This document shows positions 631 to 16,515 of a stretch of DNA of 64,000 nt, piece after piece. Origin of the DNA: Aggregatilineales bacterium (GTDB lineage Bacteria; Chloroflexota; Anaerolineae; Aggregatilineales; Ch27); contig JARKOQ010000172.1 of the NCBI GenBank assembly GCA_029976005.1, positions 2,254 to 66,253 of the forward strand, written 5' to 3'. The notes beneath the pieces were generated by a model. That model was not told the origin of the DNA and made no database searches. It saw only the letters and a program-made list of their open reading frames with translations. Position 1 is the first letter of the stretch. Each line of letters begins with the position of its first letter. Made by a program: the position numbers and the translations under genes.

Positions 631-1446
631 ATGCCGCTGTACATCGTCCCGACGCCGATAGGCAACCTGGAAGATATCACCCTGCGGGCCTTGCGCGTGC
701 TGCGCGAGGTCGATCTGATCGCGGCCGAGGACACGCGCACGTCTCGCGTGCTGCTCGATCATTACGAGATCGTGCGCCCGATGGTGAGCTATCACGAGCA
801 CAACAAGATCGAGCGGATCGAGGATATCCTCGACGTGATGGGCAAGGGGGGCAGCGTCGCGCTCATCTCCGACGCCGGGACGCCGGGCCTGTCCGATCCC
901 GGTTACGAGCTGATTAACGCCTGCCTGCTGGCCGGGGTGGAAGTCGTCTCCCTGCCGGGGCCGACGGCGGCGATCACGGCCCTGGTGGCATCCGGCCTGC
1001 CGACCGACCGGTTTCTGTTCCTGGGATTCCTGCCCCGCAGGCAGTTTGCCCTGGTAGGCCTCCTCAACGAGCTGCAGAACCGCCCGGAAACGCTGATCGC
1101 CTATGAAAGCCCTTACCGGCTGGTGGAGGCGCTCCAGGCGGTGCGCGAGGTGATGGGAGCGTCGCGCCCGGTCTGCGTGGCCCGCGAGCTGTCCAAGATG
1201 TTCGAGGAGTTTTTTCGGGGCACGGCGGAGGAGGCCGTGGCCTACTTTCAGGAACAGCCCGTGCGCGGCGAGATCACGCTGCTGATCGGCGGACAGGTCC
1301 AGGCCGCCTCGGTCTGGACCGAGAGCCAGGTGCGGGCCGCGTTCAGCGAGCGGCTGGCCCGCGGCGAGAAGCGCAACGACGCGGCGCGGGCCGTGGCGGC
1401 GGACTCCGGATGGAACAAACGCGATATCTACGCCCTCGACTTGTAG
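631..1446 (+). CDS. rsmI: 16S rRNA (cytidine1402-2'-O)-methyltransferase
   Basis: LYIVPTPIGNLEDITLRAL, AAEDTR, SDAGTPGLSDPG, YESPYR, RELSKMFEE motifs; GGAG RBS. Confidence 0.95.
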   Translation: MPLYIVPTPIGNLEDITLRALRVLREVDLIAAEDTRTSRVLLDHYEIVRPMVSYHEHNKIERIEDILDVMGKGGSVALISDAGTPGLSDPGYELINACLLAGVEVVSLPGPTAAITALVASGLPTDRFLFLGFLPRRQFALVGLLNELQNRPETLIAYESPYRLVEALQAVREVMGASRPVCVARELSKMFEEFFRGTAEEAVAYFQEQPVRGEITLLIGGQVQAASVWTESQVRAAFSERLARGEKRNDAARAVAADSGWNKRDIYALDL

Positions 1447-1478
1447 CAGCAGCAAACGGATCGAACTGGACATTCCCT

Positions 1479-2771
1479 ATGGCGTTTTTCACCCGGCGCG
1501 GCGCGCGTCTTGTCGAAGGCTGGCAGTCTCTTGGCCCGGCGGCTCAACGGCTCTCGCTCTCGCTTTTCCTGTGGGGCGTGGGCGAAGGGCTGTGGGCGTA
1601 TCTGCGCCCGCTGTACATCACCCAACTGGGGGCCGATTCGGCCGGAGTGGGGCTGATTCTGGCGATTTACGGCCTGGCTCCGATGCTGGTGATGCTGCCG
1701 GCGGGCCGCCTGAGCGACGTCTTCGGCCCGCGCCGCCTGATGATCGGCGCGTGGTGGCTCGGCACCCTGGGCCAGGTGTGCCTGGTGTTCGCCCCGGACT
1801 GGTATTGGCTGGCCCCCGGCGTTTTCCTGTTGGCCGCATCGGCGGCCGGGATGCCCGCCATGAACGCGTACGTGGCCCTGGACGCGTCGCACCGCCTGGG
1901 CGTGGCGGAGGCGGGACGCCGGATGCAGACCCTGCTCTCGCGCGTGATCGCGATCTACGTGGCCGGGACGATCGTCTCGCCGCTGGTGGGCGGCTGGCTG
2001 GCGGAACGGTTGGGGCTGCGAGTGGTGCTTTTGATCTCGGCCGGCTGGTTCCTGATGTCGACCCTGCTCGTCCATACCCTGCCGCCCGTCCGGCTGCTTT
2101 CGACGAATCCGGATGCCGGGAAGAGCGATGGCGGCGCGCTTCCCGCCGCGCGGCCGGTTGCCTGGTGGCGCATGAGCGCCGATCAGATTCGCGTGTTCGG
2201 CGTGCTGCTGCTGGTGTACCTGTGCTTCTCGCTGGGATACAGTCTCGTGCCGAGTTACCTGGAGGACGTGCGCCAGCTTCCCGTGGCGACCATCGGCGGG
2301 CTGGGCAGCGCGACCGCGCTGGGGGGCACGATCTGGCTGCTGGTGCTGGGCCGGCGCTCTTCCCGCCGGGCGCTCGTGACCGCATCGGGGATGCTCGTCA
2401 TCGCCTGGATGGGGCTGCTGCTGGCTCCGGGTGGGGCGGTGGAGATGCCCGCCCTGGTCGGGGTGTACTTCCTGCTGGGGGTGTATTCCGGGGCGCGCTC
2501 GCTGTCGCTGACCGTGGTCGGTGAGCACACGCCCCCCGAACAGCGCGGCACAAGCTTTGGGCTGATCGAGACGATGTTCGGCGTAGGGACGTTCGCCGGC
2601 CCGTGGTTGGCCGGGCAGTTGTATGGATTTGACCCGCGCCTGCCCTTTGGCGTGGCGATTGCCGCCGCCTTTGTACTGATGCCGGTCATCTGGCTGGCGC
2701 TTACATCGCCGCGCGGGGAGAAACACAAACGGGGGCAGGCGATGGCTGCCCCCGTCGAAGTCTCTGACTGA
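1479..2771 (+). CDS. MFS transporter
   Basis: About 12 hydrophobic segments; MFS motif A 'GRLSDVFGPRR' and 'GGWLAERLGLR'; start placed at ATG 1479 to avoid overlap with rsmI. Confidence 0.85.
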   Translation: MAFFTRRGARLVEGWQSLGPAAQRLSLSLFLWGVGEGLWAYLRPLYITQLGADSAGVGLILAIYGLAPMLVMLPAGRLSDVFGPRRLMIGAWWLGTLGQVCLVFAPDWYWLAPGVFLLAASAAGMPAMNAYVALDASHRLGVAEAGRRMQTLLSRVIAIYVAGTIVSPLVGGWLAERLGLRVVLLISAGWFLMSTLLVHTLPPVRLLSTNPDAGKSDGGALPAARPVAWWRMSADQIRVFGVLLLVYLCFSLGYSLVPSYLEDVRQLPVATIGGLGSATALGGTIWLLVLGRRSSRRALVTASGMLVIAWMGLLLAPGGAVEMPALVGVYFLLGVYSGARSLSLTVVGEHTPPEQRGTSFGLIETMFGVGTFAGPWLAGQLYGFDPRLPFGVAIAAAFVLMPVIWLALTSPRGEKHKRGQAMAAPVEVSD

Positions 2772-2777
2772 CCGCGC

Positions 2778-5700
2778 CTAAGCGCCTGCCTGAATATCCA
2801 TGATCCGGACCGGCACGGCGCGAATCGCCAGTCGTTCCTCGAAGATACCCCGGAACGCATCCCATGTCGTACAGGTGATCAACGTCAGCGTCTGGTTGCG
2901 GGTGGGATAGGTGACCTCCACGTCGTCGGGTGCAACCACGTCGATCGTGTAGACCATGAACTCGTAAATCCGGCCGCGTTCCGCCAGGAAGATCGAGTCG
3001 CCGACTTCCAGCAGGTCGAGGTCGCGGAACGGCCCTGGCACGCCGGTTGTGATCTGGATGTGCCCCGCCAGGACGGTGTTACCGCCCAAGCCCTGCCCGG
3101 CCTCCTCCACCCAGGTCGTCCCTTCCAGGAAGCCAATACTCTGGCCAAGATCGCGCACGTCCCAGGTCTGATTGCGGAGCGGCACGGTCACGATGGGCAC
3201 GGAGTCGCTCAAACCCAGCTTGGGAATGTACAACTCCCGGTCGTACTGCGGGCTGAACGGCGGCTGGCTGACGGTTTCCACCGGCACCCGCTGGCCGGGG
3301 GGGAGCGCCGCGATTGCGGTCGGGATCGGGATGGGCGTGGGCGGCGGTGCGGTGGGCTGGCCTGGCTCCGGCGTCGAAGTCGGGAGCGCCGTCTCCAGGG
3401 GAGCCGACATGGCTTCCGGCGGGGTGGCAGTGGCCGCCGCGGCCTGCGGCGTGCCCACGGGCGCGCTGCCCAGGTTGAGCACCAGGCTGGCGACGACGGC
3501 TACGATCACCACCGCGGCCGCGACCAGCGCCACGATGATGACCAGACGCAAGCCCTTGTCCTGCACGTTGAGCGCGAGGCCCAGCAGGCCGGTTAGCGCC
3601 AGCAGACCGATCATGAGCGCGCCGATCGGGAAGTCCGGCTGGCCGGGGGCGACATCGGCCGCGCCGGTGGCGGGCAGCATCGAGGCGTCCGGCGAGACGC
3701 GCACCGTACCCGTGGCGCAAGTGGCCTGCTGCGCGCCGATCGAGGTCGCGCAGCCGATATTCTGGAGGACCTGGTTGGCGAGCACATCCTCGCGGACTCG
3801 CGCGATGACCGTCAGCACGGCGCTCTGGTTAAAGGTCAGCGTACCCGTTGTGGCGACGATGACGTTGCCTTCGGATTCGATCGTGCCGTTGTTGATGGTC
3901 ACGCTCTGGAGGACCATCGTGCTTTCGAGCGTATCGGTCACGATGATCCCGGACAGGGGATCGGTGCCAGGGTTGCGGACGGAGACCTGCCAGGTAAGCA
4001 GGCCGCCGGGGATGGCGTAGGCCAGATCGGCCGTCTTGGTGACTTCCGGCGCGGCGGTGCCGGGGATCGGCGTGCCCACGACGATCGGATTGCCGGACGA
4101 ATCGACCGTGATCAGCGGGGTGCTGATCAGTGCGTCGTCGCTGACCGTGACCTGAGTGGTGCCGACCAGACCCTCTCCGGTGGCGGTGACCCGGAACGTG
4201 AGCGGATTGGCATCCGCGCTGGTAACCACGTGGTTGAAAGTGCCGGTCGTGCCGACGCCTTCGGCCAGAGTGCCGTCCGCGGGCAGGGTGAGCTGGATCG
4301 AGCCGCCTTGCAGGCTGGGCCGCTGCTGAGTCCCGGCGCCCTGGGTGGGCGTGGCGGTGATGTAGACCGCGCGCAGGGTGCGGACAGGCCCGTCGCCGAT
4401 GTTGAGCACGGTGATCTGGTAGTTGATCAACTCACCGACGGTGGCGATCGAGCGATCGGCTGCCACCGTGACGAAGAGCTCCGGACGGCGGACATTGATC
4501 GAGAACGTGTCGTTATCCGCGACCGAGCGGTTGAAGCTGGTCGTGGCGCTGACGGTCAGGGTGTTCACCAGCGGATCGGGGTCCGAGGCCGTGATCACGT
4601 GGGTGAAGGTCACCTGGCGCGCCGCATTCGGCGTCAGGCTGAGGATGGCCGGGCTGACGACGATTGAGCCATACCGGCTGTCCACCAGAGCCACGTTGTA
4701 GATCGTGGTATTCCCGACGTTGGTGATGGTGGCCGTATAGGTCACGGTATCTCCGTTGGCCGCCTGGGTCTTGTCCGCCGTGAGGACGACGCTGATGCGC
4801 GGGGTGGCCGTTGATAGGATGAGGTCGAAGGTCTGCATGACCGTGGCCCCCACCGGGTCCTGGGCACTGGCTGTGACCGAAACCAGGGTCTGAGGCGGTA
4901 CGCCCAGCGGCACCCGATACGCGAAGGTGACGGTGTGGGATTCGCCCGGCTGGATGATGGGCGGCGCGCCGGTGATGAGCTGGCCGGTTGGATTCGCGCT
5001 GGTAACCGCCTGCGGGCTGGTCATGGAGAGGCCGGTCAGCAAGGTGGCCCCGCTGTTGGTGACGGTCGCGGCGAAGGTGACCAGGTCGCCCACGACGGCC
5101 ACGCAGGGCACGGCGCAGTTGGCGGTGCGCAGGTCGATATCGATGGAGGATGCGGTGAGGCCGGTGCGGACGGAGCTGGTATCGGTCACCGTGCCGGCGA
5201 TCGCGCCGATGCCGGTCGCGGTCACGGTCGTGGTGATGGGCGAGACGTCCGCCGGCTGGACGGTATAGGAGAAGGTGCGTGTGACGCTCTGGCCGGAGCC
5301 GAGGCTGATCGTGTCGGCGAGGGTAATGAGCGATAGCGTGCTGCCATCCGGCCGAGTCGCCACGAGGGTGATGTTGTTGAGTGTTTCCGCGCCGATGTTG
5401 GTCACGGTTGCCAGGTAGTTGATCGGCTCCGTCGCCAGCACTCTGGCCCGATCCGCGGTCAGGATAACCCGCAGGTTGGCGTTGGACAGTAGCGCGACCG
5501 TGGCGCTGGATGTGTCGCTGACGGCCACGCCGAGCTGATCGCGGCCGGCCACGGCCACCGTATTGATCAGCGGGTCGAGATCGGTGCTGGTGTTGACCGT
5601 GTGGGTGTAGCTGGTCGAGATGCGCTGGCCCGGATCGAGGCTGTACTGCGGCAGGGTCAGGCCGGAGGTGAGGCTGTCGGAGATCGTCAGGCCGGAGACT

Positions 5701-8700
5701 CGCGTGGTGCTGGTGTTGGTGATCTCGACCGTGTAGGTGATGACGTCGCCGTTCTGAGCGGCGGCCACGCTGGCCCGTTTGATGACCTGCAACCCGCTGC
5801 CGGCGATGTTGACCTGCGCCGTGGAGGTATCGGTCAGAGTCGCGCCGGTCGCCGTGACGGCCGTGACGGCTGCGGTGTTGACGGCAGGATCGCCGTCAGC
5901 GGATGTCACGGTGCGCGAGAGGGTCGCCGAGATGGTGGCCCCCGGGATCAAGGGCTGGGCGGCGCTGACCGCCGGGAAACGGCTGGTGATGTTGCCGCCG
6001 AGCAGGGTGTCGGTGATGGTCACCGATTCGATGTTCGTCGTGCCGGTATTGGTGACGGCGATTGTGTAGTTGATCGGCGTGCCAACGGTCGCCAGGGTGG
6101 GGGTCGCGCTCTTGACGATGCGGATGTTGGGCGAGACGATGTCCACGCTGGCCGTGGCCGCGCCGGTGATCGTCCGGCTCTGGCTGAGACCCGTCACGTT
6201 GGCCGTGGTCCGGTACGGATCGGCATCCATGCCGCTGATGGTGTGGGTGTAGGACGCGATCGTGCTTTGGCCAGGGGCGAGCGTGGTGACGGACAGCGGC
6301 AGCGCGCTGCCGGTGGGCAGGCTGCTGGCCGCGAGACTCGTGATCGTGGTCAGACCGGTATTGCGGATGGTGACTGTGAAGGTCACCGTGTCCCCGATGC
6401 TGGCGAACGACCGGTCGGGAGTGTTGGTGACCAGCAGGTCGCTCGTCGTCAGCGGGATGCTGGCCGAGCTGGTATCCATGACCGGCAGGCCGCCGATCTG
6501 GCCGGTCGCCACGGCGGTGTTCACGAAGGGGCTGGTAGCCCCGGCGGGGACGGTCGCGGTGATGCAGGCCTGGGCGAACCCGCTAGGCCCCAGCGGGCCG
6601 GTGGTGCCAGGACCGGGGGTGATCGGAGTCGTGAAGGTGCTGAAGGGGATGTAATTTCCGGTCAGCGCGTCCTGAACGGCCACATTCATGATCGTGGTGG
6701 AGGCGCTCAGGTTGCGCACCTCGATGTCATAGGCCAGCGTGTCGCCGATCTCGGCGGATGTGGCCGGAACGGCGCTGGCACAGGTGCCAATGCCCCGGAT
6801 GGTCTTGGTCACGACCAGGGCCGACGCCGAGATTTGAACCGTGGCGCTGTCCGCGTCCTGGATCAGGACGCCGCTGATGGTGCGCGCCGTGGCCCGCGCG
6901 GTGTTGACCAGCGGGTCGGGATCGGAGGTCTGGATGACGCGCGTGATCGAGCCGGTGACGGACTCGTTCGGCCCCAGCGTGCCGGTCGTGGCGGGCACGC
7001 TCTGGCCGGGGAAGATGAAGTTGACCAGGCCGCCCGTGCAGCCGGTAAGCGCCGTGGCGCACAGCGGATCGCTGACCTGGACATTGCTCAGGTTGGACGT
7101 GCCGGCGTTGGCGATCGTGAATTGGTAGGTGATGGTATCGCCCACGGCGGCGGTGATGCTGTCGCCGCTCTGCGCGCCGTTGATGGCGATCTTGCTGAGG
7201 GAGATATCGGCCTCGCGGATGTCCACCACGGCCAGGGCGCTGGTGGAGACCACCACGCCGGACGGCGCGCGGCCGCTGACCGTGACACGGTTGATCAACG
7301 GATCGGGCACGGTGGGCGGCACCGTGTACAGGAAGGTGCCCACCGCGCGCTCGCCAACCGCCAGGGAGGTGATTTCCAGACCGCTGGTTGGGCTGTGGAG
7401 CGGCACGGGCAGGCCGGAAAGCTGATCCAGCGCCATGACTGCGGTAAGGGCCGTGCTGCTGGTGTTGGTGACTTCGATGGTGTAGGTAATCGTGTCCCCG
7501 ATGAGGGCAGAAGTGACGTCGGCCCGCTTGGTGACCGTCAGGCTCAGATCGCGGATCTCGACGGTGGCCGCCGCCCCGTCCGTTAAACCCTGGTCGTTGG
7601 TGACGGTGACCGTGTTGACGAACGGGTTGGGAGTCGTGCGCGTGACCACATAGAAGACCACGCCGCGCGCAGTCCGGCCGGCGGCCAGGCTGCTCAGCGC
7701 GGGATCGGTGGTGGCGGCGCCTCCGTTGTAGCTCATCGGGACGAGCTGGCCGGTCACATTGTCGACGACCTGGATGCCCGTCAGCGGGCTGGCGCCGACG
7801 TTCACCAGCTCGATCGTGTACTGGATGGTGTCGTTAACCGACGCGCCGGAGCGGTCGGCCGTCTTGGTAAGCAGGATGCCGGGCACGGCGATGTCTACCG
7901 CGACGCGGTCGATGCCTTCGACCGGCTTGTCACTGCTGTCCAGGCCGGTGACCCTGACCTCGTTGACGAACGGGTCCGGGATGGTGGCGCTGGCGACGAC
8001 CCGGTAGCTGATGAAGGCCACCTGGAAAGGACGCAGTTCCTCGGCCGGACTGACGGTCAGCGGGTTGGTGACGGTGCAGGTCAGGGTGTAGTCGGTCGAT
8101 CCGTCGCCGTTCGCGTCGACCGGCCCGCCGCAGGTGTTGGGACTGGCGCTCGTGTCCAGGCCGACTGCGGCGTCGACCACGCGCAGGTTGCGGATGCGAG
8201 TCTGGCCGATGTTGGTGATCGCAATGTTGTAGGTGATGGTGTTGCCGACCTGGACGACCGAGGGTGACGCCTGCTTTTCCACCAGAAGCTGCGACGACGA
8301 GATCAGCACCGTGGTATAGGTGCTATCCGAAAGCTGAAGGCCCGCCGGGATCGTTCGGCCCGAGGCCGAGACCCGGTTGAAGAGTGGGCTTGGATCGGCC
8401 TGGGAGAGCGTGTACGTGATCACGCCCACGGCCGACTCGTTTGGATTGAGCCGCCCGCTCACGCCGCTGGGGAAGACCAGCGGGACCGGCCCGGTCAGGT
8501 CATCGGTCGCGGCGACGCTGTCCATGATCGAGCCGCTGGAGTTGGTGACGGTGATGGTGTAGGTGATCGTGCTGCCCACGAAGCCGATCCCAGGATCGGC
8601 CACCTTGCTGACGCGGAAGCGCGGATCGATGATGTCGACGATGGCATTATCCGAGGCGGTGAGCGACTGGCCGCCCGTATCGGTGCCCTGGACGGTCAGG

Positions 8701-11700
8701 GTATTCACCAGGGGGTCGGGGTCGCTCGTGCCGACGGTGTACTGCCACGAGCAGGAGGCGGTCTGGCCCGCGAGCAGCGAGGTCGGACAGCTCGCCAGAC
8801 TGGCGATGATCGCGTTGGTGCTGTCGTCGTAGGTCAGACCGTTGATGGTGGTCGTGCCATTATTGCGCAGCACGACCGTCCAGTTGATCGGGTGTCCACG
8901 CTCTGCCTCGGTGACGTCGGATGTCAGGTCGACAGCCAGGATAGGGTTGAGCAGGTCGACTTCGGCCTGACCCTGGACGACCAGGTTGTAGTCAACGCCG
9001 CCGATGGTCATCACGCCGTTGGCGGTCACAATGTTGGTGAAGGGATCGGAAGCTGTCGGCGGCACGACCAGCGAGGCCGTGCCCACGGCCGTCTGGCCGG
9101 GGGCGAGCTGGCCCGGGTTGGCGGGATTGGGGAATGTCAGGGTGACTTCGCCGGTCAGCGTGTCGACGGCCGTGATGTTGCGGATGGTATCGGTCAGGCT
9201 GGTGTTGGTGAGCGTGATCGTGTAGTTGATCGTGTCCCCGATGTTGGCGGATGCCGGGCCGGTCTTGATGACCTGGAGCGGGCTGCTGACCTGGACTTCC
9301 GCATCATCCTCGGTAAGGATGATCACGCCTTGTTCGACCGGCCCGGCCCCGGTCACGCCGCGAACGGTGACCGTGTTGACCAGGGTCTCACTGGCCAGAT
9401 CGGCCGGCTTGATGACGTAGTTATTGCCCGCCGGATCGCTCTGCAGATAGTTGGGGTTGCAGATGAACGGCAGACAGGGCGAATCGGCGGGATTGCTGAT
9501 CGCGGCGGGCAGGGATTGGGGCGAGGTGGTGTAGACGCCCGCGCCGTTATAGCGCACGGCGATGGCGCCAAGCTTGTCGTCCGTCAGGACGACGTTCTCC
9601 ATGCTGACCCGCGAGATGTTCCACACGGTGTAGTCGTAGTGCACGGTCTGCCCCACCAGGGCAAAGGTGGGGGTGGGCGTCTTGAGGATCAGGAACGGGC
9701 TGAAAATCTCGACCGTCGACGCGGCCGAGTATGGGACGTTGCCGGTGCCGTCGTTGACCGTGACCGTGAAGGTGTTGTTCAGCTCGTTCGGATCACGCGG
9801 CTGGACGATGTAGCTGTAGGTCATCGTCGCCGTTTCACCCGGCTGGAGGACGTTGTCTGCGGTGCCGGAGCTACCTGCGATCAGCGTCGCCAGAAAGTCA
9901 CGCGGGCCGGGGGTTCCGGCGCTGTTGGACTGGTCGATGGCGGAGACAAGCGTGTAGGGCGAGTCCGAAACATTCGAGACGCTGATCTGGTAGGTGACTT
10001 CGTCGCCAATCAGGGCGATACCATAGGCCGACTTGGTGACGATGATCGGCTCGGTGACATCGACTTCCCAGGTATCCACGGCGGAGACGAGCTGGTTGTT
10101 GACCGTTCCGGTGACGGTGGCCGCATTGGAAATGGCGCCCCGCGTGACGTCATCGTTGTCCACCTCGTAGCCCGTGCCAGCGCCGCAGGGCGTCGTGGGG
10201 GCGGTCACCACCCAGACGGCGCGCGGAGGCAGGCTGGCCTGCGTCCCGATCGTGCCCAGGTTGGAGTCCTGCAAGGTGAGGTTGGTGATGGTGCTGAGCT
10301 GGCCCGTGTTGGTGATCGTGTAGGTATAGGTGATGCACTGGCCGCGCGTGGCGACGACCCGGTTGGCCGCCTTATCGATGGTCAGCGGGTTGACGACCTG
10401 GACATTCCACTGGTTCGAGTCCGCGACCCGGTCGCCGCTCACGCGCCGCGTGCCGGTCACGGTCGCGGTGTTGGTGATGGTGCTGTTCCGGCGGGTCAGG
10501 TCGGTGAGCGTCACCTGATAGCTGAACTTGCCGTAGGCCATTCCACCGGGCGTGCCCGCGATCGGATCGGCGGGAGCCAGACTCAGCGTCTCCGCGTAAG
10601 GCCCGGTCACGGCCGTGCCATCGTAGGGCGCGATCAGGACGTGGCCGTTCAGGCAGTCCGTCGACGTGGTCGGGCAGAGCGCGTCGCTCAACGTGACCCC
10701 GTCGATGATCTCGTCCGAGATGTTCTCGATGACGAACTCGTAGTTGATGGTGTCTCCGACCGCGGCATTGTTCACGTTTGCCGTCTTGGTCAGGCGAATT
10801 TGCGTTGGCAGGACGTTGATAGTGGCGGTGCCGAAGAAGCTGCGTTCCAAACCCTGGTCATCGCGCCCGGTGATTCGCACCAGGATGGTCAGCGGGTCGG
10901 GGTCCGAGGACTGTACCGTGCGGGTGAATTCCGCGAATGCGCTTTCGAAGGGGGCCAGGTCATCCGGCACGGTGGTTGGACCGGAGCCGAAATTGATCTG
11001 GAGCTGGGTGGGGGCGCCCCCGCCGCTCACGACTTCCCAGTAGCCGACGATGTCGGTCAGCGTGATCCGGCCGATGTTGGCGATGCCCACGTTGTACAGG
11101 ACGGGCAGGCCGGGGCCCTGTTCGTCCGGCGGGTTGGACGAGACCGTGATGAACAACTGGGCGTCGCTGATGTCCACGATCTCGGAGGTCGAATCGGACA
11201 GTCCTGGCGTCGTGGTGAGGACCTCGATCACGTTCACGAGCGGGTCGGGATCGCTGCCGGCGACGGTGTAGGGCACGCTGAAGGAGTAGGTAGTCCCTGC
11301 GGGCAGTGACAGGCCGGTGGGCGGGATGCCACCGACCTGGCCGACCAGGCTGTCATTGATCGACTGGATGACAAAATCCTGATCTGGAGTCAGGTTGGTC
11401 ACGGCGATGTCGTAGGTGATGGTATCGCCGCGCAGCGCCGATGTCCGGTCGGCGGTCTTGGTGATCTGGAGGCGATCGTCAAGGATGTCCACGAACACCG
11501 AGGCCGAATCCGAGATGATGGAGCCGGTGGTCGTAGTTGCCCTGACGGTGGCCGTCGTGCGGGTGGTGTAACCGAAGGGGTCCGGATCGCTGGGCTGGAT
11601 GGTATAGACGAACGAGCCAGAGACGGAGCCACCGGCCGGGATGGATGTGCTGGTCAGGTTGACCTGACCGCCCGTGCAGCCGACGCCCGCGCCGGGTAGG

Positions 11701-13154
11701 GTACACAGCGGGAACGTGAGCGTGACGTTTACCAGCCCATCCGGCCCGGTATTGTTGACCTGGAAGCCGTACTGGACGGTGTTGTTGGGAAGCTGGCGGT
11801 TGGGCGTAACCGTCATGACCAGTTCCAGCGCGGGATTGGTCTTATCCACGCTGGCCGTCCAGTTGTCGCCGACATTGGTGCCTCGCGGCGAGACGCCGAC
11901 GGCGGTCACGATATTGATCAGGGGATCGGCGTCACTTTCCTTGACGGTATAGTTGACGGTGCGGGTGACGATATCACCGGCGGGCAGCGGATTGGGCACA
12001 CCGGTGATGATGCCGGTCAGCGAGTCGACGACCGTGACGTTGTTGAGCGGCACGTCGCCATTGTTCTCGATCCGGATCGTGTAGGTGATGGTTTCGCCGA
12101 CGGCCGCTTGCTGCACGTTGGCATACTTCAGCACGCGCAGCGAGGGAATCGCCTTGGTGGTCGTCGCACTGTCGCCAAATACCGCAGTGATGCCGGAAGC
12201 CTGGGCCTGAACCACCACGCTGTTCAGGACGGGGTTGGGGTACTCCGGCCGCATCGTACATGAGAAATTGCCAGTCGCCAGCGCGCCAATCGAGGCTGGC
12301 AGGCTCAGGGTGCTCATCAGGCCTTCAATGGTCGAGCCTGGAGTCGGGGTACATGCCCCGAATGTGCTCGTCTCGAAATAGACGTCGTTGATGAAGTTCA
12401 GGGTGGTGGCAATGGCGCGGTTGTTGACGACGGTCAGCGTCCAGGTAATCGTGTCGCCGACTTCGACGGCGGCGCTGGCGGTCAGGTCGACCGAGATGTT
12501 GGGGCCGTCGACGCGGAAGGTCAGATTGTTGGTGGAACCCGTGTCCTGGTCGCAGACGACGCCTATGCTTGGAAAAGTGCCCCAGGCATTCCAGCGGTAG
12601 TCCATAACAACCGGGTCCGAGGCCCGGGCCGTGTATTCGACATAGGCCTGGGCGACTTCTCCTGGCGAGAGGATGCCATCGAAGGTGATCGGATTGCCGG
12701 AGAGATCGGTCCAGATGGGATCGATGTCAACCCGGTTGAGGGCGTTATTCCAGTCCATGCGGACATTGCCCTGAACTCCGGTCGCATCGACCGCCGCCGT
12801 GTTGGTCACGCGCACGACGATGCGCACCAGGTCGCCCGGCGTGACCTGGATCAGGCTGCCTGTGAATCCGCCGGGGTAGAAGTCGTTGTGCAGGATATTG
12901 CGGTTGCCGAAAATCGTAGAGACGGTGTGCAGTTCCCAGAGCTGCACGCTCAGCCGATTGCCAGAGTCATTCGGGCAGACTGCCGGCGGCGTGGCGCCAC
13001 TGGGCCGCTCCGGTATTTCGGCGGGTTGCGCCGCGGCCTCCTCGCCGGCATAGGCGCGCGGCGCGGCCTCCGGCTGGATCAGGCCGGAAGCGTTCAGGAC
13101 CAGCAGCACGATATAGAGCAGAGTGAGGGCAGACCGCAGCCACTTCCTAGACAT
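2778..13154 (-). CDS. Giant secreted surface protein: signal peptide, ~25 DUF11-like Ig repeats, LPATG motif, two TM helices, P/T linker and C-terminal sortase domain
   Basis: N-terminal signal MSRKWLRSALTLLYIVLLVLNASG; repeats of 'L.(V/I)TK.A....A..GDTITY.I.V.N.G......V.D.L...DP..N...V.G'; LPATG at 3663-3677; sortase motifs LYIPKLG, GNTVLAGH, LEVGD, TLTLITC, ERLAIRA. Confidence 0.88.
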   Translation of the reverse strand: MSRKWLRSALTLLYIVLLVLNASGLIQPEAAPRAYAGEEAAAQPAEIPERPSGATPPAVCPNDSGNRLSVQLWELHTVSTIFGNRNILHNDFYPGGFTGSLIQVTPGDLVRIVVRVTNTAAVDATGVQGNVRMDWNNALNRVDIDPIWTDLSGNPITFDGILSPGEVAQAYVEYTARASDPVVMDYRWNAWGTFPSIGVVCDQDTGSTNNLTFRVDGPNISVDLTASAAVEVGDTITWTLTVVNNRAIATTLNFINDVYFETSTFGACTPTPGSTIEGLMSTLSLPASIGALATGNFSCTMRPEYPNPVLNSVVVQAQASGITAVFGDSATTTKAIPSLRVLKYANVQQAAVGETITYTIRIENNGDVPLNNVTVVDSLTGIITGVPNPLPAGDIVTRTVNYTVKESDADPLINIVTAVGVSPRGTNVGDNWTASVDKTNPALELVMTVTPNRQLPNNTVQYGFQVNNTGPDGLVNVTLTFPLCTLPGAGVGCTGGQVNLTSTSIPAGGSVSGSFVYTIQPSDPDPFGYTTRTTATVRATTTTGSIISDSASVFVDILDDRLQITKTADRTSALRGDTITYDIAVTNLTPDQDFVIQSINDSLVGQVGGIPPTGLSLPAGTTYSFSVPYTVAGSDPDPLVNVIEVLTTTPGLSDSTSEIVDISDAQLFITVSSNPPDEQGPGLPVLYNVGIANIGRITLTDIVGYWEVVSGGGAPTQLQINFGSGPTTVPDDLAPFESAFAEFTRTVQSSDPDPLTILVRITGRDDQGLERSFFGTATINVLPTQIRLTKTANVNNAAVGDTINYEFVIENISDEIIDGVTLSDALCPTTSTDCLNGHVLIAPYDGTAVTGPYAETLSLAPADPIAGTPGGMAYGKFSYQVTLTDLTRRNSTITNTATVTGTRRVSGDRVADSNQWNVQVVNPLTIDKAANRVVATRGQCITYTYTITNTGQLSTITNLTLQDSNLGTIGTQASLPPRAVWVVTAPTTPCGAGTGYEVDNDDVTRGAISNAATVTGTVNNQLVSAVDTWEVDVTEPIIVTKSAYGIALIGDEVTYQISVSNVSDSPYTLVSAIDQSNSAGTPGPRDFLATLIAGSSGTADNVLQPGETATMTYSYIVQPRDPNELNNTFTVTVNDGTGNVPYSAASTVEIFSPFLILKTPTPTFALVGQTVHYDYTVWNISRVSMENVVLTDDKLGAIAVRYNGAGVYTTSPQSLPAAISNPADSPCLPFICNPNYLQSDPAGNNYVIKPADLASETLVNTVTVRGVTGAGPVEQGVIILTEDDAEVQVSSPLQVIKTGPASANIGDTINYTITLTNTSLTDTIRNITAVDTLTGEVTLTFPNPANPGQLAPGQTAVGTASLVVPPTASDPFTNIVTANGVMTIGGVDYNLVVQGQAEVDLLNPILAVDLTSDVTEAERGHPINWTVVLRNNGTTTINGLTYDDSTNAIIASLASCPTSLLAGQTASCSWQYTVGTSDPDPLVNTLTVQGTDTGGQSLTASDNAIVDIIDPRFRVSKVADPGIGFVGSTITYTITVTNSSGSIMDSVAATDDLTGPVPLVFPSGVSGRLNPNESAVGVITYTLSQADPSPLFNRVSASGRTIPAGLQLSDSTYTTVLISSSQLLVEKQASPSVVQVGNTITYNIAITNIGQTRIRNLRVVDAAVGLDTSASPNTCGGPVDANGDGSTDYTLTCTVTNPLTVSPAEELRPFQVAFISYRVVASATIPDPFVNEVRVTGLDSSDKPVEGIDRVAVDIAVPGILLTKTADRSGASVNDTIQYTIELVNVGASPLTGIQVVDNVTGQLVPMSYNGGAATTDPALSSLAAGRTARGVVFYVVTRTTPNPFVNTVTVTNDQGLTDGAAATVEIRDLSLTVTKRADVTSALIGDTITYTIEVTNTSSTALTAVMALDQLSGLPVPLHSPTSGLEITSLAVGERAVGTFLYTVPPTVPDPLINRVTVSGRAPSGVVVSTSALAVVDIREADISLSKIAINGAQSGDSITAAVGDTITYQFTIANAGTSNLSNVQVSDPLCATALTGCTGGLVNFIFPGQSVPATTGTLGPNESVTGSITRVIQTSDPDPLVNTARATARTISGVLIQDADSATVQISASALVVTKTIRGIGTCASAVPATSAEIGDTLAYDIEVRNLSASTTIMNVAVQDALTGNYIPFSTFTTPITPGPGTTGPLGPSGFAQACITATVPAGATSPFVNTAVATGQIGGLPVMDTSSASIPLTTSDLLVTNTPDRSFASIGDTVTFTVTIRNTGLTTITSLAASSLPTGSALPLSVTTLAPGQSTIASYTHTISGMDADPYRTTANVTGLSQSRTITGAATASVDIVSPNIRIVKSATPTLATVGTPINYTIAVTNTGTTNIESVTITDTLLGGNITSRFPAVSAAQPLIPGATISATLSRTVTSADGDPAVNTAAVTAVTATGATLTDTSTAQVNIAGSGLQVIKRASVAAAQNGDVITYTVEITNTSTTRVSGLTISDSLTSGLTLPQYSLDPGQRISTSYTHTVNTSTDLDPLINTVAVAGRDQLGVAVSDTSSATVALLSNANLRVILTADRARVLATEPINYLATVTNIGAETLNNITLVATRPDGSTLSLITLADTISLGSGQSVTRTFSYTVQPADVSPITTTVTATGIGAIAGTVTDTSSVRTGLTASSIDIDLRTANCAVPCVAVVGDLVTFAATVTNSGATLLTGLSMTSPQAVTSANPTGQLITGAPPIIQPGESHTVTFAYRVPLGVPPQTLVSVTASAQDPVGATVMQTFDLILSTATPRISVVLTADKTQAANGDTVTYTATITNVGNTTIYNVALVDSRYGSIVVSPAILSLTPNAARQVTFTHVITASDPDPLVNTLTVSATTSFNRSVADNDTFSINVRRPELFVTVAADRSIATVGELINYQITVLNIGDGPVRTLRAVYITATPTQGAGTQQRPSLQGGSIQLTLPADGTLAEGVGTTGTFNHVVTSADANPLTFRVTATGEGLVGTTQVTVSDDALISTPLITVDSSGNPIVVGTPIPGTAAPEVTKTADLAYAIPGGLLTWQVSVRNPGTDPLSGIIVTDTLESTMVLQSVTINNGTIESEGNVIVATTGTLTFNQSAVLTVIARVREDVLANQVLQNIGCATSIGAQQATCATGTVRVSPDASMLPATGAADVAPGQPDFPIGALMIGLLALTGLLGLALNVQDKGLRLVIIVALVAAAVVIVAVVASLVLNLGSAPVGTPQAAAATATPPEAMSAPLETALPTSTPEPGQPTAPPPTPIPIPTAIAALPPGQRVPVETVSQPPFSPQYDRELYIPKLGLSDSVPIVTVPLRNQTWDVRDLGQSIGFLEGTTWVEEAGQGLGGNTVLAGHIQITTGVPGPFRDLDLLEVGDSIFLAERGRIYEFMVYTIDVVAPDDVEVTYPTRNQTLTLITCTTWDAFRGIFEERLAIRAVPVRIMDIQAGA

Positions 13155-13340
13155 AAGCTTCCCCCGCAGGATAAGGCCAGGATCGGGCTTTCCCCGGCCG
13201 CAGCAGTCGCACGGATTATCGAGGAAACATGAGTTTATAGATCGCCACTAGATATCATTATCAGCTTTCGTAGAGCCAAGCGGCAAGTGTCAGAAGGTAC
13301 TATTTTGTTACAGTGTTGTGCAAGTTCGGTAAGGTTACAG

Positions 13341-14528
13341 TCAACGGGCATCGAGACCCGCGTAGCTTTCCAGCAGGCGCACTGCCTGAGCCGGCCAGCC
13401 GCAGACCTGCTGGGCCGCCTGAAGCGCGGCCTGCCACGCCTGGCGCGTGTCTGGATTCTCCAGCCGGATGATGGCTTCCGCCAGTGTTTCCGGCTGATCG
13501 GCATCCCACAGCGAACCGATCGGATATTCCACGAGAAAGTGGGCCAACGCCGGGGTCCGGGTCGAGAGCACCGGCAGGCCGGCGGCGATCGCTTCCAGCA
13601 GTTTGGTGGGGACCGAGAGCGCGTAGTTTGGCTCGGATGCCGTGATGGCGATCAGGGATGCGTCCGCGTTCTGGATGGCGGCGCTGACTTCGGCAGAGGC
13701 GATCGGCGGATGGAAGTGGACCTGCCGGCCGACGCCCAGCGACTCCGCCAGCGCGGCCAGCGCCGCCTTCTGTTCGCCGTCTCCCAGGAAGGTCAGGTGA
13801 ACATCCGGCGGGCAGAGGGCCACGCCTCTGACCAGTTGATCCAGACAGCGTCCCCGGCGGATCAGGCCCCCGGTGTGGATCAGCCACAGGCGCGCGCCTT
13901 CGGGACGAGGCAGGGGCGTGGCATTTCCCACACACGTAACCCCATTAAGTATGGTCACCGGGCAGGCGCATCCCCACCGGCGGGCCATGAAGTCAGCTCG
14001 ATAGGGGCTGTTGGCCAGGATCAGATTGGCCCGGCGGGCCAGGCGGCGTTCCAGGGCGCGTTCCACGGCGAGGCGCAGCCGGGGCCAGGGATGGGGAGGC
14101 TCCGGATAGCGGTAGAGATACAGCTCGTGGGCGTCGTAGACCAGGCGAGTCTTGCGGCGTTGGCCCAGGCGGGCCAGGGCGACCATCACCAGGGCCGGGA
14201 AGTCGTGGGCATGCCAGATGTCGGCGGATTGACGGCGCAGACTACCGAGCAGGGCCAGTCCCTGGAGCACGTGGCGCAGCCGCTTGAGCAGCGGCAACCG
14301 GCGCAGGGCCTCCAATTCTGGCCCGTAGCGGAAGCGGCGGATTTCCCAGAGGCCCGCGGATTCGTGATCGGGCAGCGGGCTGGAAGCGTCGTGCGTGCCG
14401 ATCACGCTGACCGGGTAGCCCGCCTCCGCCAGGGCAGCCGCTTCGTTGCGCACCCGGGTGTCAAACGTGACCTCGTTGAGGACGAGCATCACAACCCGTG
14501 GACTGCCAGGGCTGACATGCTTGATCAT
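13341..14528 (-). CDS. Glycosyltransferase family 4 (GT-B)
   Basis: D.RV..EA..L...GY.V, HAHDF, VYDAHELY, PTKLLEAIAAGLPV motifs. Confidence 0.88.
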   Translation of the reverse strand: MIKHVSPGSPRVVMLVLNEVTFDTRVRNEAAALAEAGYPVSVIGTHDASSPLPDHESAGLWEIRRFRYGPELEALRRLPLLKRLRHVLQGLALLGSLRRQSADIWHAHDFPALVMVALARLGQRRKTRLVYDAHELYLYRYPEPPHPWPRLRLAVERALERRLARRANLILANSPYRADFMARRWGCACPVTILNGVTCVGNATPLPRPEGARLWLIHTGGLIRRGRCLDQLVRGVALCPPDVHLTFLGDGEQKAALAALAESLGVGRQVHFHPPIASAEVSAAIQNADASLIAITASEPNYALSVPTKLLEAIAAGLPVLSTRTPALAHFLVEYPIGSLWDADQPETLAEAIIRLENPDTRQAWQAALQAAQQVCGWPAQAVRLLESYAGLDAR

Positions 14529-14586
14529 GATTGATATACTCTATGTTTATGAACTGTACAGGTATCCAGATTGGGGCAACGCAACA

Positions 14587-15150
14587 TTGAAAATATACAC
14601 GAAAACCGGGGATAGCGGCGACACGGGCCTCTTTGGTGGGGGCCGGGTGCGCAAAAGCGGCATCCGGGTCGAGGCGTATGGAACCGCCGATGAACTCAAT
14701 TCGATCCTGGGACTGGTGCGCGCCTACGGCTTGCCGGAACCGGCCGACCGGTGGCTGGTGGACGTCCAGAACGATCTGTTTTGTCTGGGGGCTGACCTGG
14801 CGACCCCGATGGAGGCCAAGTCCGCCTGGATCGTGCGCCTGGAGATGGCGGCAGTGACGCGCCTGGAGCAGGTGATCGACCAGATCGAGGTAGACCTGCC
14901 GCCGCTTAAGAACTTCATCTTGCCCGGCGGCGCGCCGGCGGCAGCCGCGCTTCACGTGGCCCGGACGGTCTGCCGGCGGGCGGAGCGCATTGCCGTGCAG
15001 TTGAACGACGAGCAGGAGATCAACCCGACCGTCCTGATCTATCTCAACCGCCTTTCGGATTTGCTGTTTGTCCTGGCGCGTTGGGTCAATATCCGGCTCG
15101 GACAGAGCGAAACCGAATGGCAGTCGGGCGGGCGTTCAGACCCGGCCTAG
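14587..15150 (+). CDS. PduO-type ATP:cob(I)alamin adenosyltransferase
   Basis: KIYTKTGDSGDTGL, EAYGTADELNS, FILPGG, ARTVCRRAER, YLNRLSDLLF; likely TTG start at 14587. Confidence 0.92.
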   Translation: MKIYTKTGDSGDTGLFGGGRVRKSGIRVEAYGTADELNSILGLVRAYGLPEPADRWLVDVQNDLFCLGADLATPMEAKSAWIVRLEMAAVTRLEQVIDQIEVDLPPLKNFILPGGAPAAAALHVARTVCRRAERIAVQLNDEQEINPTVLIYLNRLSDLLFVLARWVNIRLGQSETEWQSGGRSDPA

Positions 15151-16019
15151 AGGTCGGCGGCCAGACGGAATCCGACCACGTTATCCTGGCCGTGCGGGTA
15201 GTAGCAGTAACGGGCCGCGCAGCGCGCGTCATCCGGCCCGTGATACCAGGAGCCGCCCCGGACGATCTGCGGCTCTGCGGCGGCTCTGGGATTGGCCGGT
15301 TGGTCCAGGGCGAGCGGGTAGCGGCGCAGGGGGGAATCGCACCATTCCCAGAGGTTCCCGGCCATGTCCGCGCAGCCGAACGGGCTGTCCCCCAGGGGGG
15401 AGAACTGGCCAACCGGCGTGGGGCAGGCCCGGCGCGGCGCGGGATCGGGGGCGTCCCAGCTATCGACCGTCTCCGGCGCGGTGTTGGCATAGGCCGGCTC
15501 CCAGCGATTACCCCAGGGATAACGCCGTCCGTCTGTGCCCCGTGCGGCTTTCTCCCATTCCGGCTCGGTGGGCAGGCGGTAGGCTCCGCCGCTGACGTGG
15601 GACAGCCAGCGACAGTAGGCTGCGGCCGCGTGCCAGCTCACCCCCGCGACGGGCAGGTTGGGATCGTCCGACCAGTCCGGGTCCGACCAGTATTCGGGCT
15701 GAGTGATCCGGTTTTGTTCTCGCCAGCGCCAGCCAGACTCGCTCCAGAAGACGCTGTCCAGGTATCCCCCCGCTTCGACGAAGGCCGCGAATTCGCCGAC
15801 CGTCACGGGATAGCGCCCGATCTGGTAGGCGGGCAGAGTCAGGGTATGCAGGGGCTGCTCCCTGGCGTACCACTCCATCCGGTTGCCGTGCGCCGTGCGC
15901 CCCAACTGCCGTACTTCGCGCGGGTCGGTGCCCATCAGGAAGGGACCGGCGGGAATCGTCACCATAGCCGGATGAGGCACGTTCGGCGCTGCTTGGGGGT
16001 TGGAGCTTGCCTGAGACAT
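15147..16019 (-). CDS. Formylglycine-generating-enzyme (SUMF1/EgtB-like) domain protein
   Basis: IPAGPFLMG, YPVT..EF..FV, RLPTEPEWEKAARG, YPWG, DMAGNLWEW, RGGSW, GFR. Confidence 0.88.
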   Translation of the reverse strand: MSQASSNPQAAPNVPHPAMVTIPAGPFLMGTDPREVRQLGRTAHGNRMEWYAREQPLHTLTLPAYQIGRYPVTVGEFAAFVEAGGYLDSVFWSESGWRWREQNRITQPEYWSDPDWSDDPNLPVAGVSWHAAAAYCRWLSHVSGGAYRLPTEPEWEKAARGTDGRRYPWGNRWEPAYANTAPETVDSWDAPDPAPRRACPTPVGQFSPLGDSPFGCADMAGNLWEWCDSPLRRYPLALDQPANPRAAAEPQIVRGGSWYHGPDDARCAARYCYYPHGQDNVVGFRLAADL

Positions 16020-16075
16020 CGTTTCTACCCAATCCAGGTGCCCTGGCAGGCGGGGCGGCGGCGAAGGGGCGTCCT

Positions 16076-16513
16076 CTAGAGCAGACCCAGGTGGCCGAGC
16101 AAGGCATCCATCCCCAGGATGTAGCTCCGCCAGCCGAATCCGCAAATCTGGCCCAGGCAGACCGCCGCCAGCATCGAGCGGTGGCGGAAGGATTCCCGGG
16201 CGTGAATGTTGCTGAGGTGGACTTCGACCACGGGCAAATCGATGCTGGCGATCGCGTCCCGCAAGGCGATGGAGGTATGGGTGTATGCGCCTGGGTTCAT
16301 CACCACGCCGCCCGCCCAGTTGCGCGCGATGTGCAGGGTATCGATCAACACGCCTTCGTGGTTTGACTGCTGGATGCGCACGGTGACGCTCCGGGCGAGC
16401 GCGTGCTCCTTGATACGATCGTTGATGTCGTCGAGCGTCAGGGAGCCATAGACCTCCGGCTCGCGCTGGCCGAGCAGGTTGAGGTTCGGGCCGTGGAGTA
16501 TCAGGAACTCCAT
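16076..16513 (-). CDS. aroQ: Type II 3-dehydroquinate dehydratase
   Basis: [43 protein letters not shown]; true start at ATG 16513. Confidence 0.95.
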
Positions 16514-16515
16514 GC

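Follow-up and report, generated by a model that had tools for sequence, protein, structure and literature searches.

Sortases are textbook trans-acting enzymes with many substrates. In the canonical system, the substrate carries within its last 35-50 or so residues a sorting signal composed of an LPxTG motif, a hydrophobic helix and basic residues, and the sortase is a separate, type II membrane-tethered protein with a His-Cys-Arg catalytic set. Some sortases are dedicated to a single substrate encoded next to them, and those of class C are associated with pilins, which contain isopeptide-type Ig domains. A C-terminal processing domain is also known from Hedgehog/Hint-type proteins. It cleaves itself off by forming a (thio)ester with the new C-terminus of its passenger, and this single-turnover reaction ends with the transfer of the passenger to an acceptor. 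Its fold and chemistry family are unrelated to those of sortases, and the analogy concerns the logic alone.

The original design of a self-cleaving sortase fusion tag reportedly dates from 2004. In such engineered tags, the sortase and LPXTG belong to one polypeptide, and cleavage in cis or in trans frees the partner, according to the accessible part of one report (PMC2901362). These are soluble laboratory constructs, with the sortase N-terminal of the motif. The literature that we searched, subscription journals and supplements being outside its scope, describes engineered fusions only and no natural fusion of a substrate with a sortase. A survey of isopeptide domains checked only the last 50 residues for sortase motifs; hence, such fusions lie outside its motif screen. 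In Chloroflexota, the CLIPPER adhesin GhlA of Litorilinea aerophila has a giant stalk of tandem DUF11-type domains, and the accessible part of its description mentions neither sortase nor LPXTG (0 occurrences).

We analysed a window of 64,000 nucleotides from an Aggregatilineales bacterium (GCA_029976005.1, contig JARKOQ010000172.1, positions 2,254 to 66,253). It codes for a giant precursor, P0001, with a stalk like that of GhlA and with both a sorting signal and a sortase of the canonical kinds. In contrast with the canonical system, no stop codon separates the two, the basic tail of the signal appears to have turned into a cytoplasmic loop, and substrate and enzyme are present 1:1 in one chain. 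The fusion also differs from the engineered tags in that it is natural, C-terminal, tethered by a membrane hairpin and conserved across the phylum. LPXTG, sortases and CLIPPER repeats are each familiar components, and annotations in databases already display the architecture; the surprise is limited accordingly.

Gene and passenger of P0001

The P0001 gene occupies positions 2778-13154 of the minus strand, on which all the features described below are found. It codes for 3,458 residues, its stop codon is at 2778-2780, and the open reading frame (ORF) list and translation show no internal stop. As pattern matches only, a promoter-like site is present ~100 nt upstream of the start codon (13257-13286; 9/12 in a consensus scan), and a terminator-like hairpin of 11 pairs, 8 of them G-C, begins 22 nt past the stop codon (2728-2756). 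The terminator consensus scan gave two matches in the gene region versus 0.3 expected.

From its N- to its C-terminus, P0001 comprises a signal peptide, ~31 DUF11/DUF7507 (CLIPPER) Ig-like repeats, an LPATG motif, a transmembrane (TM) helix, a loop of 8 residues containing Lys and Arg, a second TM helix, a tether and a sortase domain. The initial annotation had described the anatomy from the Ig repeats onwards, including a Pro/Thr linker before the sortase, and the ORF, hydropathy, AlphaFold2 and Pfam analyses all agree with it. The profile searches that it had proposed matched both PF04203 and DUF11. Altogether, Pfam detects 20 stretches of DUF7507 and 11 of DUF11 in P0001, plus CARDB and Sortase.

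The predicted signal peptide region, read from the sequence and from a hydropathy peak at residues 6-27, extends at most over residues 1-36 (13047-13154). It has a basic n-region (R3, K4 and R7) and a hydrophobic core (L10-L20), with possible cleavage after G24 or A36. The passenger that follows (residues 37-3159; 3678-13046) consists of tandem CLIPPER-type (DUF11/DUF7507) Ig-like domains according to Pfam and NCBIfam, and these repeats would form a fibrillar stalk. Fifteen of its 27 Lys residues are invariant across 10 orthologues and are spaced ~110 residues apart, which is the pattern expected for a single isopeptide Lys per domain. Lys-Asp-Asn triads are listed for both DUF11 and DUF7507 (PMC12617251, Table 1), and the NCBIfam signature of isopeptide-forming fimbrial domains, TIGR04226, was detected with an E value of 4e-16. 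P0001 thus displays the hallmarks of CLIPPER fibrillar adhesins, namely tandem DUF11/DUF7507 domains, an N-terminal hydrophobic signal, a sorting element and a conserved Lys per domain. In a relative, P0171, a short member of the TM-less family described below, the modelled DUF11 domain is similar to a CLIPPER domain of solved structure, 9ifr (Z 15.6). The N-terminal 304 residues of P0001 retrieved only DUF11/DUF7507-like clusters from the ESM Atlas, at 0.91, a weak match. The pilin-type motif [WYF]P[KR] is absent from the entire protein, as judged by a simple pattern that a divergent motif could escape.

Sorting motif, membrane hairpin and sortase domain

The LPATG motif (residues 3160-3164) is encoded at 3663-3677, exactly where the initial annotation had placed it, and its predicted scissile bond is T3163/G3164. 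It is the sole LPxTG of P0001; shuffled sequences contain a mean of 0.21 per protein and 0.002 per given 30-residue window. TM helix 1 (residues 3175-3195; 3570-3632), a putative stop-transfer segment running from out to in, starts 10 residues after the motif, the median distance being 11 residues in fused proteins. It is followed by the loop NVQDKGLR (residues 3196-3203; 3546-3569), predicted to be cytoplasmic from loop charge statistics and from split relatives, and by TM helix 2 (residues 3204-3228; 3471-3545), a putative signal-anchor running from in to out. Both helices were called with a simple Kyte-Doolittle hydropathy script and with AlphaFold2, which models them at residues 3177-3195 and 3200-3229, respectively. 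A tether rich in Pro, Ala and Thr (21, 13 and 10 of 79 residues) spans residues 3229-3307 (3234-3470), and its composition and low pLDDT indicate that it is probably flexible. The median tether length is 57 residues in fused proteins versus 60 in 69 stand-alone relatives.

P0001 thus has the pentapeptide of an LPXTG sorting signal, a hydrophobic helix directly after it and then basic residues (K3200 and R3203). In contrast with canonical signals, which are found at the extreme C-terminus, the motif is followed by ~294-295 residues comprising the hairpin, the tether and the sortase. None of the TIGR01167-type LPXTG-anchor models of NCBIfam matched P0001 at an E value of 0.01 or better.

In 57 fused proteins, the hairpin loops contain 158 Lys and Arg versus 35 Asp and Glu, with at least one Lys or Arg in every loop (57/57), and the outer flanks are acidic, with 47 basic versus 77 acidic residues on the motif side and 75 versus 247 on the enzyme side. 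The loop is positively charged, hence cytoplasmic, which would place LPATG and the sortase on the same, outer face of the membrane. The topology put forward in the initial annotation, with a hairpin that brings the sortase next to the motif, is thus borne out in silico by the positive-inside rule. The same analysis predicts the arrangement typical of the sortase family, in which the catalytic domain is extracytoplasmic and anchored in the membrane.

The sortase catalytic domain (residues 3308-3449; 2808-3233) was identified with PF04203, TIGR01076, AlphaFold2 and Foldseek. PF04203 scores 74 bits (E 1e-20) on the C-terminal piece and 70.7 bits on the whole of P0001 for a cut-off of 26.6, and TIGR01076 of NCBIfam scores 43.3 bits versus a cut-off of 39.35. 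The putative catalytic residues, His3365 of LAGH (3060-3062), Cys3428 of TLITC (2871-2873) and Arg3441 of ERL (2832-2834), correspond to the invariant columns H222, C285 and R298 of an alignment of 117 sequences (A1). His3365 and Cys3428 are also aligned with the GH and TC motifs of solved sortases, which sequence comparison matches as well. AlphaFold2 models the sortase core, with the closed beta-barrel fold of the family, at a pLDDT of 93-97, and Foldseek matched this model to sortases of classes A, C and E (E 5e-10 to 1e-8, target TM-scores of 0.55-0.81). Thus, the fused enzyme looks active, judging from the invariant His, Cys and Arg and from the modelled fold.

Assignment to sortase classes A-F or to the marine class (NF033745-NF033748, NF058671 and TIGR03784) was rejected, all scores being below the class cut-offs of NCBIfam. 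Class E gave the best score (39.3 bits versus a cut-off of 160), followed by classes C (38.6/160) and D (37.7/165), the marine class (29.8/158) and class F (26.8/166). As the P0001 sortase falls outside the curated classes, unlike canonical sortases, its motif preference cannot be read off a class. In the AlphaFold2 model, LPATG is unplaced (pLDDT <50) and is not docked on its own sortase. A predicted complex of the sortase domain with a 32-residue LPATG segment (score 0.03, mark 0.32) weighs neither way.

Distribution and unfused relatives of the fusion

The initial annotation had reported a frame without stop or frameshift and had surmised that similar fusions might exist in Chloroflexota. 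Contigs from three other, independent metagenome studies cross the junction without insertions or deletions; those of X5 tile positions 2700-3913, and a single 515-nt contig of X9 covers 3337-3851. Together with the continuous ORF, they show the frame to be uninterrupted. Among the sequencing runs listed for the region, none was an RNA run with a substantial share of it; four presumed RNA runs contain small shares only, and X16, one of the runs compared with the region, is probably DNA. The fusions turned out to be numerous, and a survey of homologues, which the initial annotation had recommended, showed that the order LPxTG-TM-TM-sortase is conserved. PF04203 is present in 23/23 near-length matches, and LP[ATV]TG, two hydrophobic segments and a sortase were found in all 17 of the closest near-length homologues (P0002-P0018, P0002 being the window's own cluster). 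Among the best 150 representatives of 50%-identity clusters, 45 have the motif, at least two TM helices and a sortase. In genomes of GTDB species, 44 of 80 loci, nearly all from Chloroflexota, combine LPxTG, two TM helices and a sortase in one open frame; five of the 80 were not evaluable by the motif pattern, and the scan relied on patterns derived from a narrower alignment (A2) of the window's clade and does not bear on other phyla. Since motif and enzyme are inherited together in one gene, their joint conservation alone does not prove that one acts on the other.

A second, larger family has LPxTGFAPG joined directly to the sortase, with no membrane helices. The motif xPx[TS]G is found in all its evaluable members (118/118), at a near-fixed distance of 142-146 residues upstream of the Cys, except for one member with 128 residues. 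AlphaFold2 places the motif of this TM-less family against the domain with a pLDDT of ~97. The LPxTGFAPG segment aligns with 6bwe_B where the lid of class C sortases presumably begins, as judged from the alignment range only. The fusion thus occurs in a hairpin-tethered family and in a TM-less family of several hundred clusters of sequences.

Unfused relatives have the side-by-side organization of dedicated sortases and their single substrates. At one locus (L070), an ORF ending with LPVTG, a TM helix and RARRK is found ~70 nt before a stand-alone sortase. For 4 of the 11 closest stand-alone sortases of the class sample, an ORF with an LPETG sorting signal ends between -66 and +76 nt from the sortase frame. 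In these split relatives, the substrate ends and the sortase starts at a point equivalent to the NVQDKGLR loop, which would thus be the counterpart of a sorting signal's basic tail and a sortase's basic N-terminus fused together. The fused sortases form their own clades, with 16 rows in that of the window, all fused (support 100). The existence of unfused substrate-then-sortase pairs implies that the fusion joins the tail of a substrate to its dedicated enzyme, and these comparisons of sequences are taken to show that such gene pairs gave rise to it.

A frameshift, a lost stop codon or a chimeric assembly might in principle have joined separate substrate and sortase genes, as relatives have split forms and, at one related locus (L064), the frame seems to be shifted. 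Such an artefact is extremely improbable given the continuous frame in 44 species-level genomes and in all the close homologues, the indel-free contigs of the three other studies, and a fused loop that is always a short, basic stretch without a stop.

Proposed processing of P0001 and its alternatives

We consider it rather probable that P0001 is a giant, isopeptide-stabilized fibrillar surface protein and that its fused sortase processes the chain to which it belongs and attaches the fibre to the wall. The signal peptide would send the ~3,100-residue passenger through Sec, after which TM helix 1 would stop the transfer and keep the precursor in the membrane. TM helix 2 would then re-insert, and the tether and the sortase domain would thereby reach the outer face. 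The enzyme would thus appear only after export of the entire passenger, in a 1:1 stoichiometry with it. Cys3428 would attack the T3163-G3164 bond of its own chain or of a neighbouring copy, and the resulting thioacyl intermediate would be resolved by an amine. The initial annotation had been wary of an atypical or absent peptidoglycan. This concern is largely answered, as the genome makes peptidoglycan, with nine matches to penicillin-binding protein (PBP) transpeptidases and six to Mur ligases; hence, a peptidoglycan precursor is the most likely acceptor. The fibre would end up covalently anchored to the wall, leaving a hairpin-plus-sortase remnant in the membrane. Cleavage itself, its occurrence in cis or in trans, a single turnover and the nature of the acceptor are steps that we infer.

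More tentatively, the fusions might define a Chloroflexota 'auto-sortase' module, in which a C-terminal sortase would cut its own LPxTG in cis, once, and pass the passenger to the wall or to another acceptor. This possible module would have two natural forms, the membrane hairpin and a soluble LPxTGFAPG-sortase cassette found on many kinds of passengers.

Rather than being anchored to the wall, P0001 could be polymerized as pilins are, with Thr3163 linked to a Lys of another copy to yield class C-like, multi-subunit fibres. The fold does resemble class C as well as classes A and E, the passenger has isopeptide-type Ig domains like those of pilins, including the TIGR04226 signature, and, in a different species of Chloroflexota, a giant protein with DUF11 domains is reported to make multi-chain grappling-hook filaments (PMC13319060). 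Nevertheless, polymerization appears unlikely, as the Lys of a pilin-type motif was not found, the spacing of the 15 invariant Lys matches the domain repeats and fits intramolecular isopeptide bonds, and, in contrast with class C systems, the enzyme is fused to its substrate and a single 3,100-residue chain already has the length of a fibre. The GhlA filament is, moreover, described without any sortase in the part of its account that is accessible.

The genome also codes for four ordinary stand-alone sortases, which could process LPATG instead. The freed, hairpin-anchored sortase domain would then serve other LPxTG proteins, for which at least four candidate canonical tails are available in the genome (contigs C64, C143, C189 and C221), and the fusion would only couple expression. 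This uncoupled use of the two parts is quite doubtful, considering that the fused sortases make up separate, long-lived clades that are not nested among housekeeping enzymes, that their closest unfused relatives are found directly behind a single substrate gene, and that the stand-alone sortases of the same genome are just 30-35% identical to the fused domain. Sortases hydrolyse their substrates in the absence of an amine acceptor; thus, the fused enzyme might also be mainly a site-specific protease using water as the nucleophile, shedding the passenger into a sheath, the matrix or the medium. The TM-less sister family, which is not tethered to the membrane near lipid II, and the origin of the organism in sludge and wastewater communities, which could plausibly contain matrix proteins, point in that direction. 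Self-release nonetheless seems improbable, because cheaper routes exist, such as having no anchor whatever, because the membrane tether and the Arg-His-Cys transpeptidase set are retained as in anchoring sortases, and because peptidoglycan is synthesized.

A natural fusion of substrate and enzyme that anchors itself would, if true, represent a mode of operation different from that of known sortases, stoichiometric and possibly limited to a single turnover. If the more tentative auto-sortase reading holds, each of these surface proteins would carry its own single-use anchoring enzyme, and the two forms of the module would constitute a functionally new class of sortases as well as a natural model for self-ligating protein tags. 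Natural self-processing cassettes of this type could also serve as self-cleaving tags. For the Anaerolineae of sludge and wastewater communities, which are poorly studied and mostly uncultured, these fusions would provide a direct handle on how surface fibres are built.

C-terminal module of the giant surface protein

According to the ORF listing and translation, 2778-13154 on the reverse strand is a single open frame of 3,458 codons. In its product, P0001, Pfam identifies 20 DUF7507 and 11 DUF11 stretches, CARDB and, at residues 3308-3449, a Sortase domain matched over its full length (PF04203). With a cut-off of 26.6 bits, the Sortase score is 70.7 for the complete protein and 74 (E 1e-20) for its last 350 residues. 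At the N-terminus, the n-region is basic and a hydropathy scan shows a hydrophobic core (residues 6-27), which together fit a predicted Sec signal peptide. Past the last repeat, the chain continues with LPATG (residues 3160-3164; nucleotides 3663-3677, reverse strand) and two transmembrane (TM) helices (TM1, residues 3175-3195; TM2, residues 3204-3228) linked by the loop NVQDKGLR. A tether of 79 residues, among them 21 Pro, 13 Ala and 10 Thr, then leads to the sortase. All the elements listed in the initial annotation, from LPATG to a sortase with His, Cys and Arg, thus lie where it had put them, and the profile search that it proposed detected both Sortase and DUF11 domains.

AlphaFold2, run with a 117-sequence alignment, placed the helices at residues 3177-3195 and 3200-3229 and modelled the sortase core with pLDDT values of 93-97. 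Foldseek matched the model to solved class A, C and E sortases (E 5e-10 to 1e-8), phmmer matched the domain to 50 solved sortase sequences, and His3365, Cys3428 and Arg3441 do not vary among the 117 aligned sequences. Profile, triad and fold all place the domain in the sortase family; when tested on the curated classes A-F, it fitted none. LPATG is the sole LPxTG of the chain, for a chance level in shuffles of P0001 of 0.21 per protein and 0.002 per given 30-residue window. The motif, helix and charge of a sorting signal are present, away from the extreme C-terminus.

P0001 has only 27 Lys among its 3,458 residues. Fifteen of them, spaced by ~110 residues between positions 343 and 3040, are invariant among ten orthologues. 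Such a distribution would be expected of CLIPPER-type (DUF11/DUF7507-type Ig-like) domains that each form one intramolecular isopeptide bond; presumably, there is one isopeptide Lys per domain. Table 1 of PMC12617251 lists Lys-Asp-Asn triads for both DUF11 and DUF7507. In a published isopeptide survey, sortase motifs were screened in the last 50 residues only, and P0001-type fusions therefore fall outside that screen.

Occurrence and topology of the fusion

The fusion is real, as indicated by long homologues, HMMER clusters, loci of other species and junction-spanning contigs. With the last 319 residues of P0001 as the query and targets limited to 1,901-6,052 aa, 23 proteins were returned, all with PF04203. 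LP[ATV]TG, a pair of hydrophobic segments and the sortase occur together in each of the 17 closest (P0002-P0018, where P0002 is the cluster of the window itself). When 1.84 billion cluster representatives were searched exhaustively with HMMER, 4,171 matched at E ≤1e-3. Among the best 150 of these, for which class counts are approximate because many short entries are contig-end fragments, 45 combine the motif and the sortase with two or more TM segments, two have the motif and one TM segment, and 14 have the motif without TM. Motif-less proteins comprise 67 with one TM segment, which are ordinary stand-alone sortases, 10 with two, 10 with none and one with three; the Cys pattern is missing in one protein.

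Scanning GTDB, with each species represented by one genome, gave 80 loci, the top one 84% identical, with titles nearly all from Anaerolineae, Aggregatilineales, Anaerolineales, Thermoflexus or other Chloroflexota. At 44 of the 80 loci (five not being evaluable with the search pattern), a single frame, usually open as far as the 4-kb flank reaches, encodes LPxTG, two or more TM segments and the sortase. Contigs of runs from studies distinct from the possible source bridge the junction without insertion or deletion: those of run X5 tile 2700-3913, and run X9 provides one 515-nt contig (3337-3851) taking in the motif, TM1, the loop and TM2. That the fusion is an artefact, not genuine in the organism, is extremely improbable. 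The intact frame, the LPxTG-TM-TM-sortase arrangement, for which a homologue survey had been advised, and the guess that similar fusions exist in Chloroflexota were thus all borne out.

Apart from G000, 15 genomes (G280, G398, G119, G322, G183 and others) of the 401 sampled from the class have, in total, 21 sortase matches that end open frames of 689-3,620 aa, with four in G280 alone. In a long-read MAG (locus L064, 3700-4450), the frame shifts soon after LPTTG, TM1 is lost and a sortase frame then resumes. An indel error, or decay of the fused form to a pseudogene, probably accounts for this.

We determined charge distributions in 57 fused proteins with the motif and exactly two hydrophobic segments. 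The inter-helix stretch, taken between helix centres, totals 158 K+R versus 35 D+E, has at least one K or R in all 57 proteins and is net positive in 49. The corresponding numbers are 47 versus 77 for the motif-side flank and 75 versus 247 for the enzyme-side flank. By the positive-inside rule, this bias predicts a cytoplasmic loop, with LPxTG and sortase both outward, as the initial annotation had proposed. The motif lies at a median of 11 aa from TM1, and the tether between TM2 and the sortase core has a median length of 57 aa, versus 60 aa in 69 stand-alone relatives. The fused protein thus appears to be an ordinary sorting signal and an ordinary membrane-tethered sortase, joined at both cytoplasmic ends.

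Gene pairs and a sister family

In an Anaerolineae MAG (locus L070, 1-1770; sortase 41% identical), an ORF ends with LPVTG, a hydrophobic segment, RARRKDDNAS and a stop, and ~70 nt further lies a stand-alone sortase gene whose product carries a TM anchor behind a basic N-terminus. For 4 of the 11 closest stand-alone sortases in the 401-genome sample, an ORF with an LPETG sorting signal ends -66 to +76 nt from the sortase frame; LPETG substrate-sortase pairing is found at loci L009, L010, L011 and L016. Loss of one stop codon from such a pair would give the architecture of P0001.

This origin is supported by a FastTree phylogeny with local support values, built from 172 sortase domains; P0002, P0037-P0041, rows lacking the Cys pattern and rows with <125 aa ahead of it were left out. 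The clade of P0001 (16 rows, all fused; support 100) is nested in a 58-row clade with 38 recognisably fused rows, the remainder being mostly fragments. A second hairpin-fused clade, of shorter proteins with LPGTG, is separate. The grouping of fused rows in their own clades indicates that the fusions are old and stably inherited.

Six of the 23 long matches (P0019-P0024) represent a TM-less form with the motif directly ahead of the sortase, which forms a monophyletic clade of 19 rows in the tree (support 99). With P0171, a short member, as the query, 514 proteins in its length band were matched at E ≤1e-10. P0171, P0192-P0310 and P0019-P0024 are Anaerolineae surface proteins with a C-terminal sortase and no TM helix, and the passengers of the P0171 family are varied (DUF11, DUF7507, PF14312, PF13205, PF17210 and others). 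Among the best 120 of the 514, two of which are too short, xPx[TS]G is present in 118/118, located 142-146 aa ahead of the catalytic Cys with a single exception at 128 aa, and exactly 144 aa ahead in 95. The extended consensus is LPxTGFAPG[RV]xT. In the AlphaFold2 model of P0171 (mean pLDDT 91.9), the motif block reaches ~97 though it is a coil, which suggests that the motif is packed against the sortase domain. The structural alignment with the class C sortase 6bwe_B starts at model residue 128, just ahead of the motif, at the position of the class C lid; this is a hint only.

Genomic context and proposed processing of the passenger

The window's stretch is present in wastewater and sludge metagenomes of several studies. 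Pattern matches alone indicate a promoter-like site ahead of the giant gene's start and a terminator-like hairpin (2728-2756, reverse strand) 22 nt past its stop codon; this strong hairpin extends into the 3' end of a convergent gene for an MFS transporter (1410-2771, forward strand). A GT4-family glycosyltransferase gene (13341-14528, reverse strand) directly precedes the giant gene, at a distance of 186 nt and on the same strand, and the Pro/Thr-rich tether or the passenger might be a substrate of its product. Genes for a cobalamin adenosyltransferase (14446-15150) and an FGE-sulfatase-type protein (15147-16145) are found beside a shikimate-pathway run (16076-21497, reverse strand) encoding dehydroquinase II, dehydroquinate synthase, shikimate kinase, chorismate synthase, shikimate dehydrogenase and EPSP synthase.

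In full-text searches of the openly available literature, we found no account of a natural substrate-sortase fusion, in agreement with the initial annotation, which knew of no mechanistic description. The fusions reported are engineered in the laboratory, whereas the P0001 type is natural. Databases label these proteins 'sortase family protein', and the fused architecture is thus visible there but unexplained.

We consider it fairly probable that the P0001 sortase is a dedicated enzyme that processes its own polypeptide, the passenger then being taken by an amine. Several points weigh against this: AlphaFold2 leaves LPATG of P0001 unplaced, the domain falls outside every curated class, and motif and enzyme, being inherited together, would be expected to be conserved together in any case. 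The four other sortase genes of the genome (4.76 Mb assembly, 82% complete) also do; all are stand-alone and, where scored, share 30-35% identity with the fused domain. Candidate canonical LPxTG tails, at least four in number, occur on contigs C64, C143, C189 and C221. Functional uncoupling, with LPATG cut by another sortase, is quite unlikely in our view.

Pilus-like polymerisation also seems unlikely; the pilin-type motif [WYF]P[KR] was not found anywhere in P0001. A 6,596-aa DUF11 protein of Litorilinea aerophila gives rise to grappling-hook filaments (PMC13319060 and preprint); the passages on it in these texts mention no sortase. We give hydrolytic self-release a similarly small chance. 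With respect to the acceptor, about which the initial annotation had doubts, the mur-gene check returned six Mur-ligase and nine PBP-transpeptidase matches in the genome, including a dcw-like cluster on contig C178, which indicate that this organism makes peptidoglycan.

In the self-processing reading that we favour, Cys3428 would attack the T3163-G3164 bond of its own chain or of a neighbouring copy, and the passenger would be transferred to an amine, probably the peptidoglycan precursor. For the fusions overall, the TM-less family raises the plausibility that motif and enzyme have a built-in relation. The fusion would secure a 1:1 supply and the co-localisation of enzyme and substrate, and the enzyme would appear only once the entire 3,100-aa passenger has been exported.
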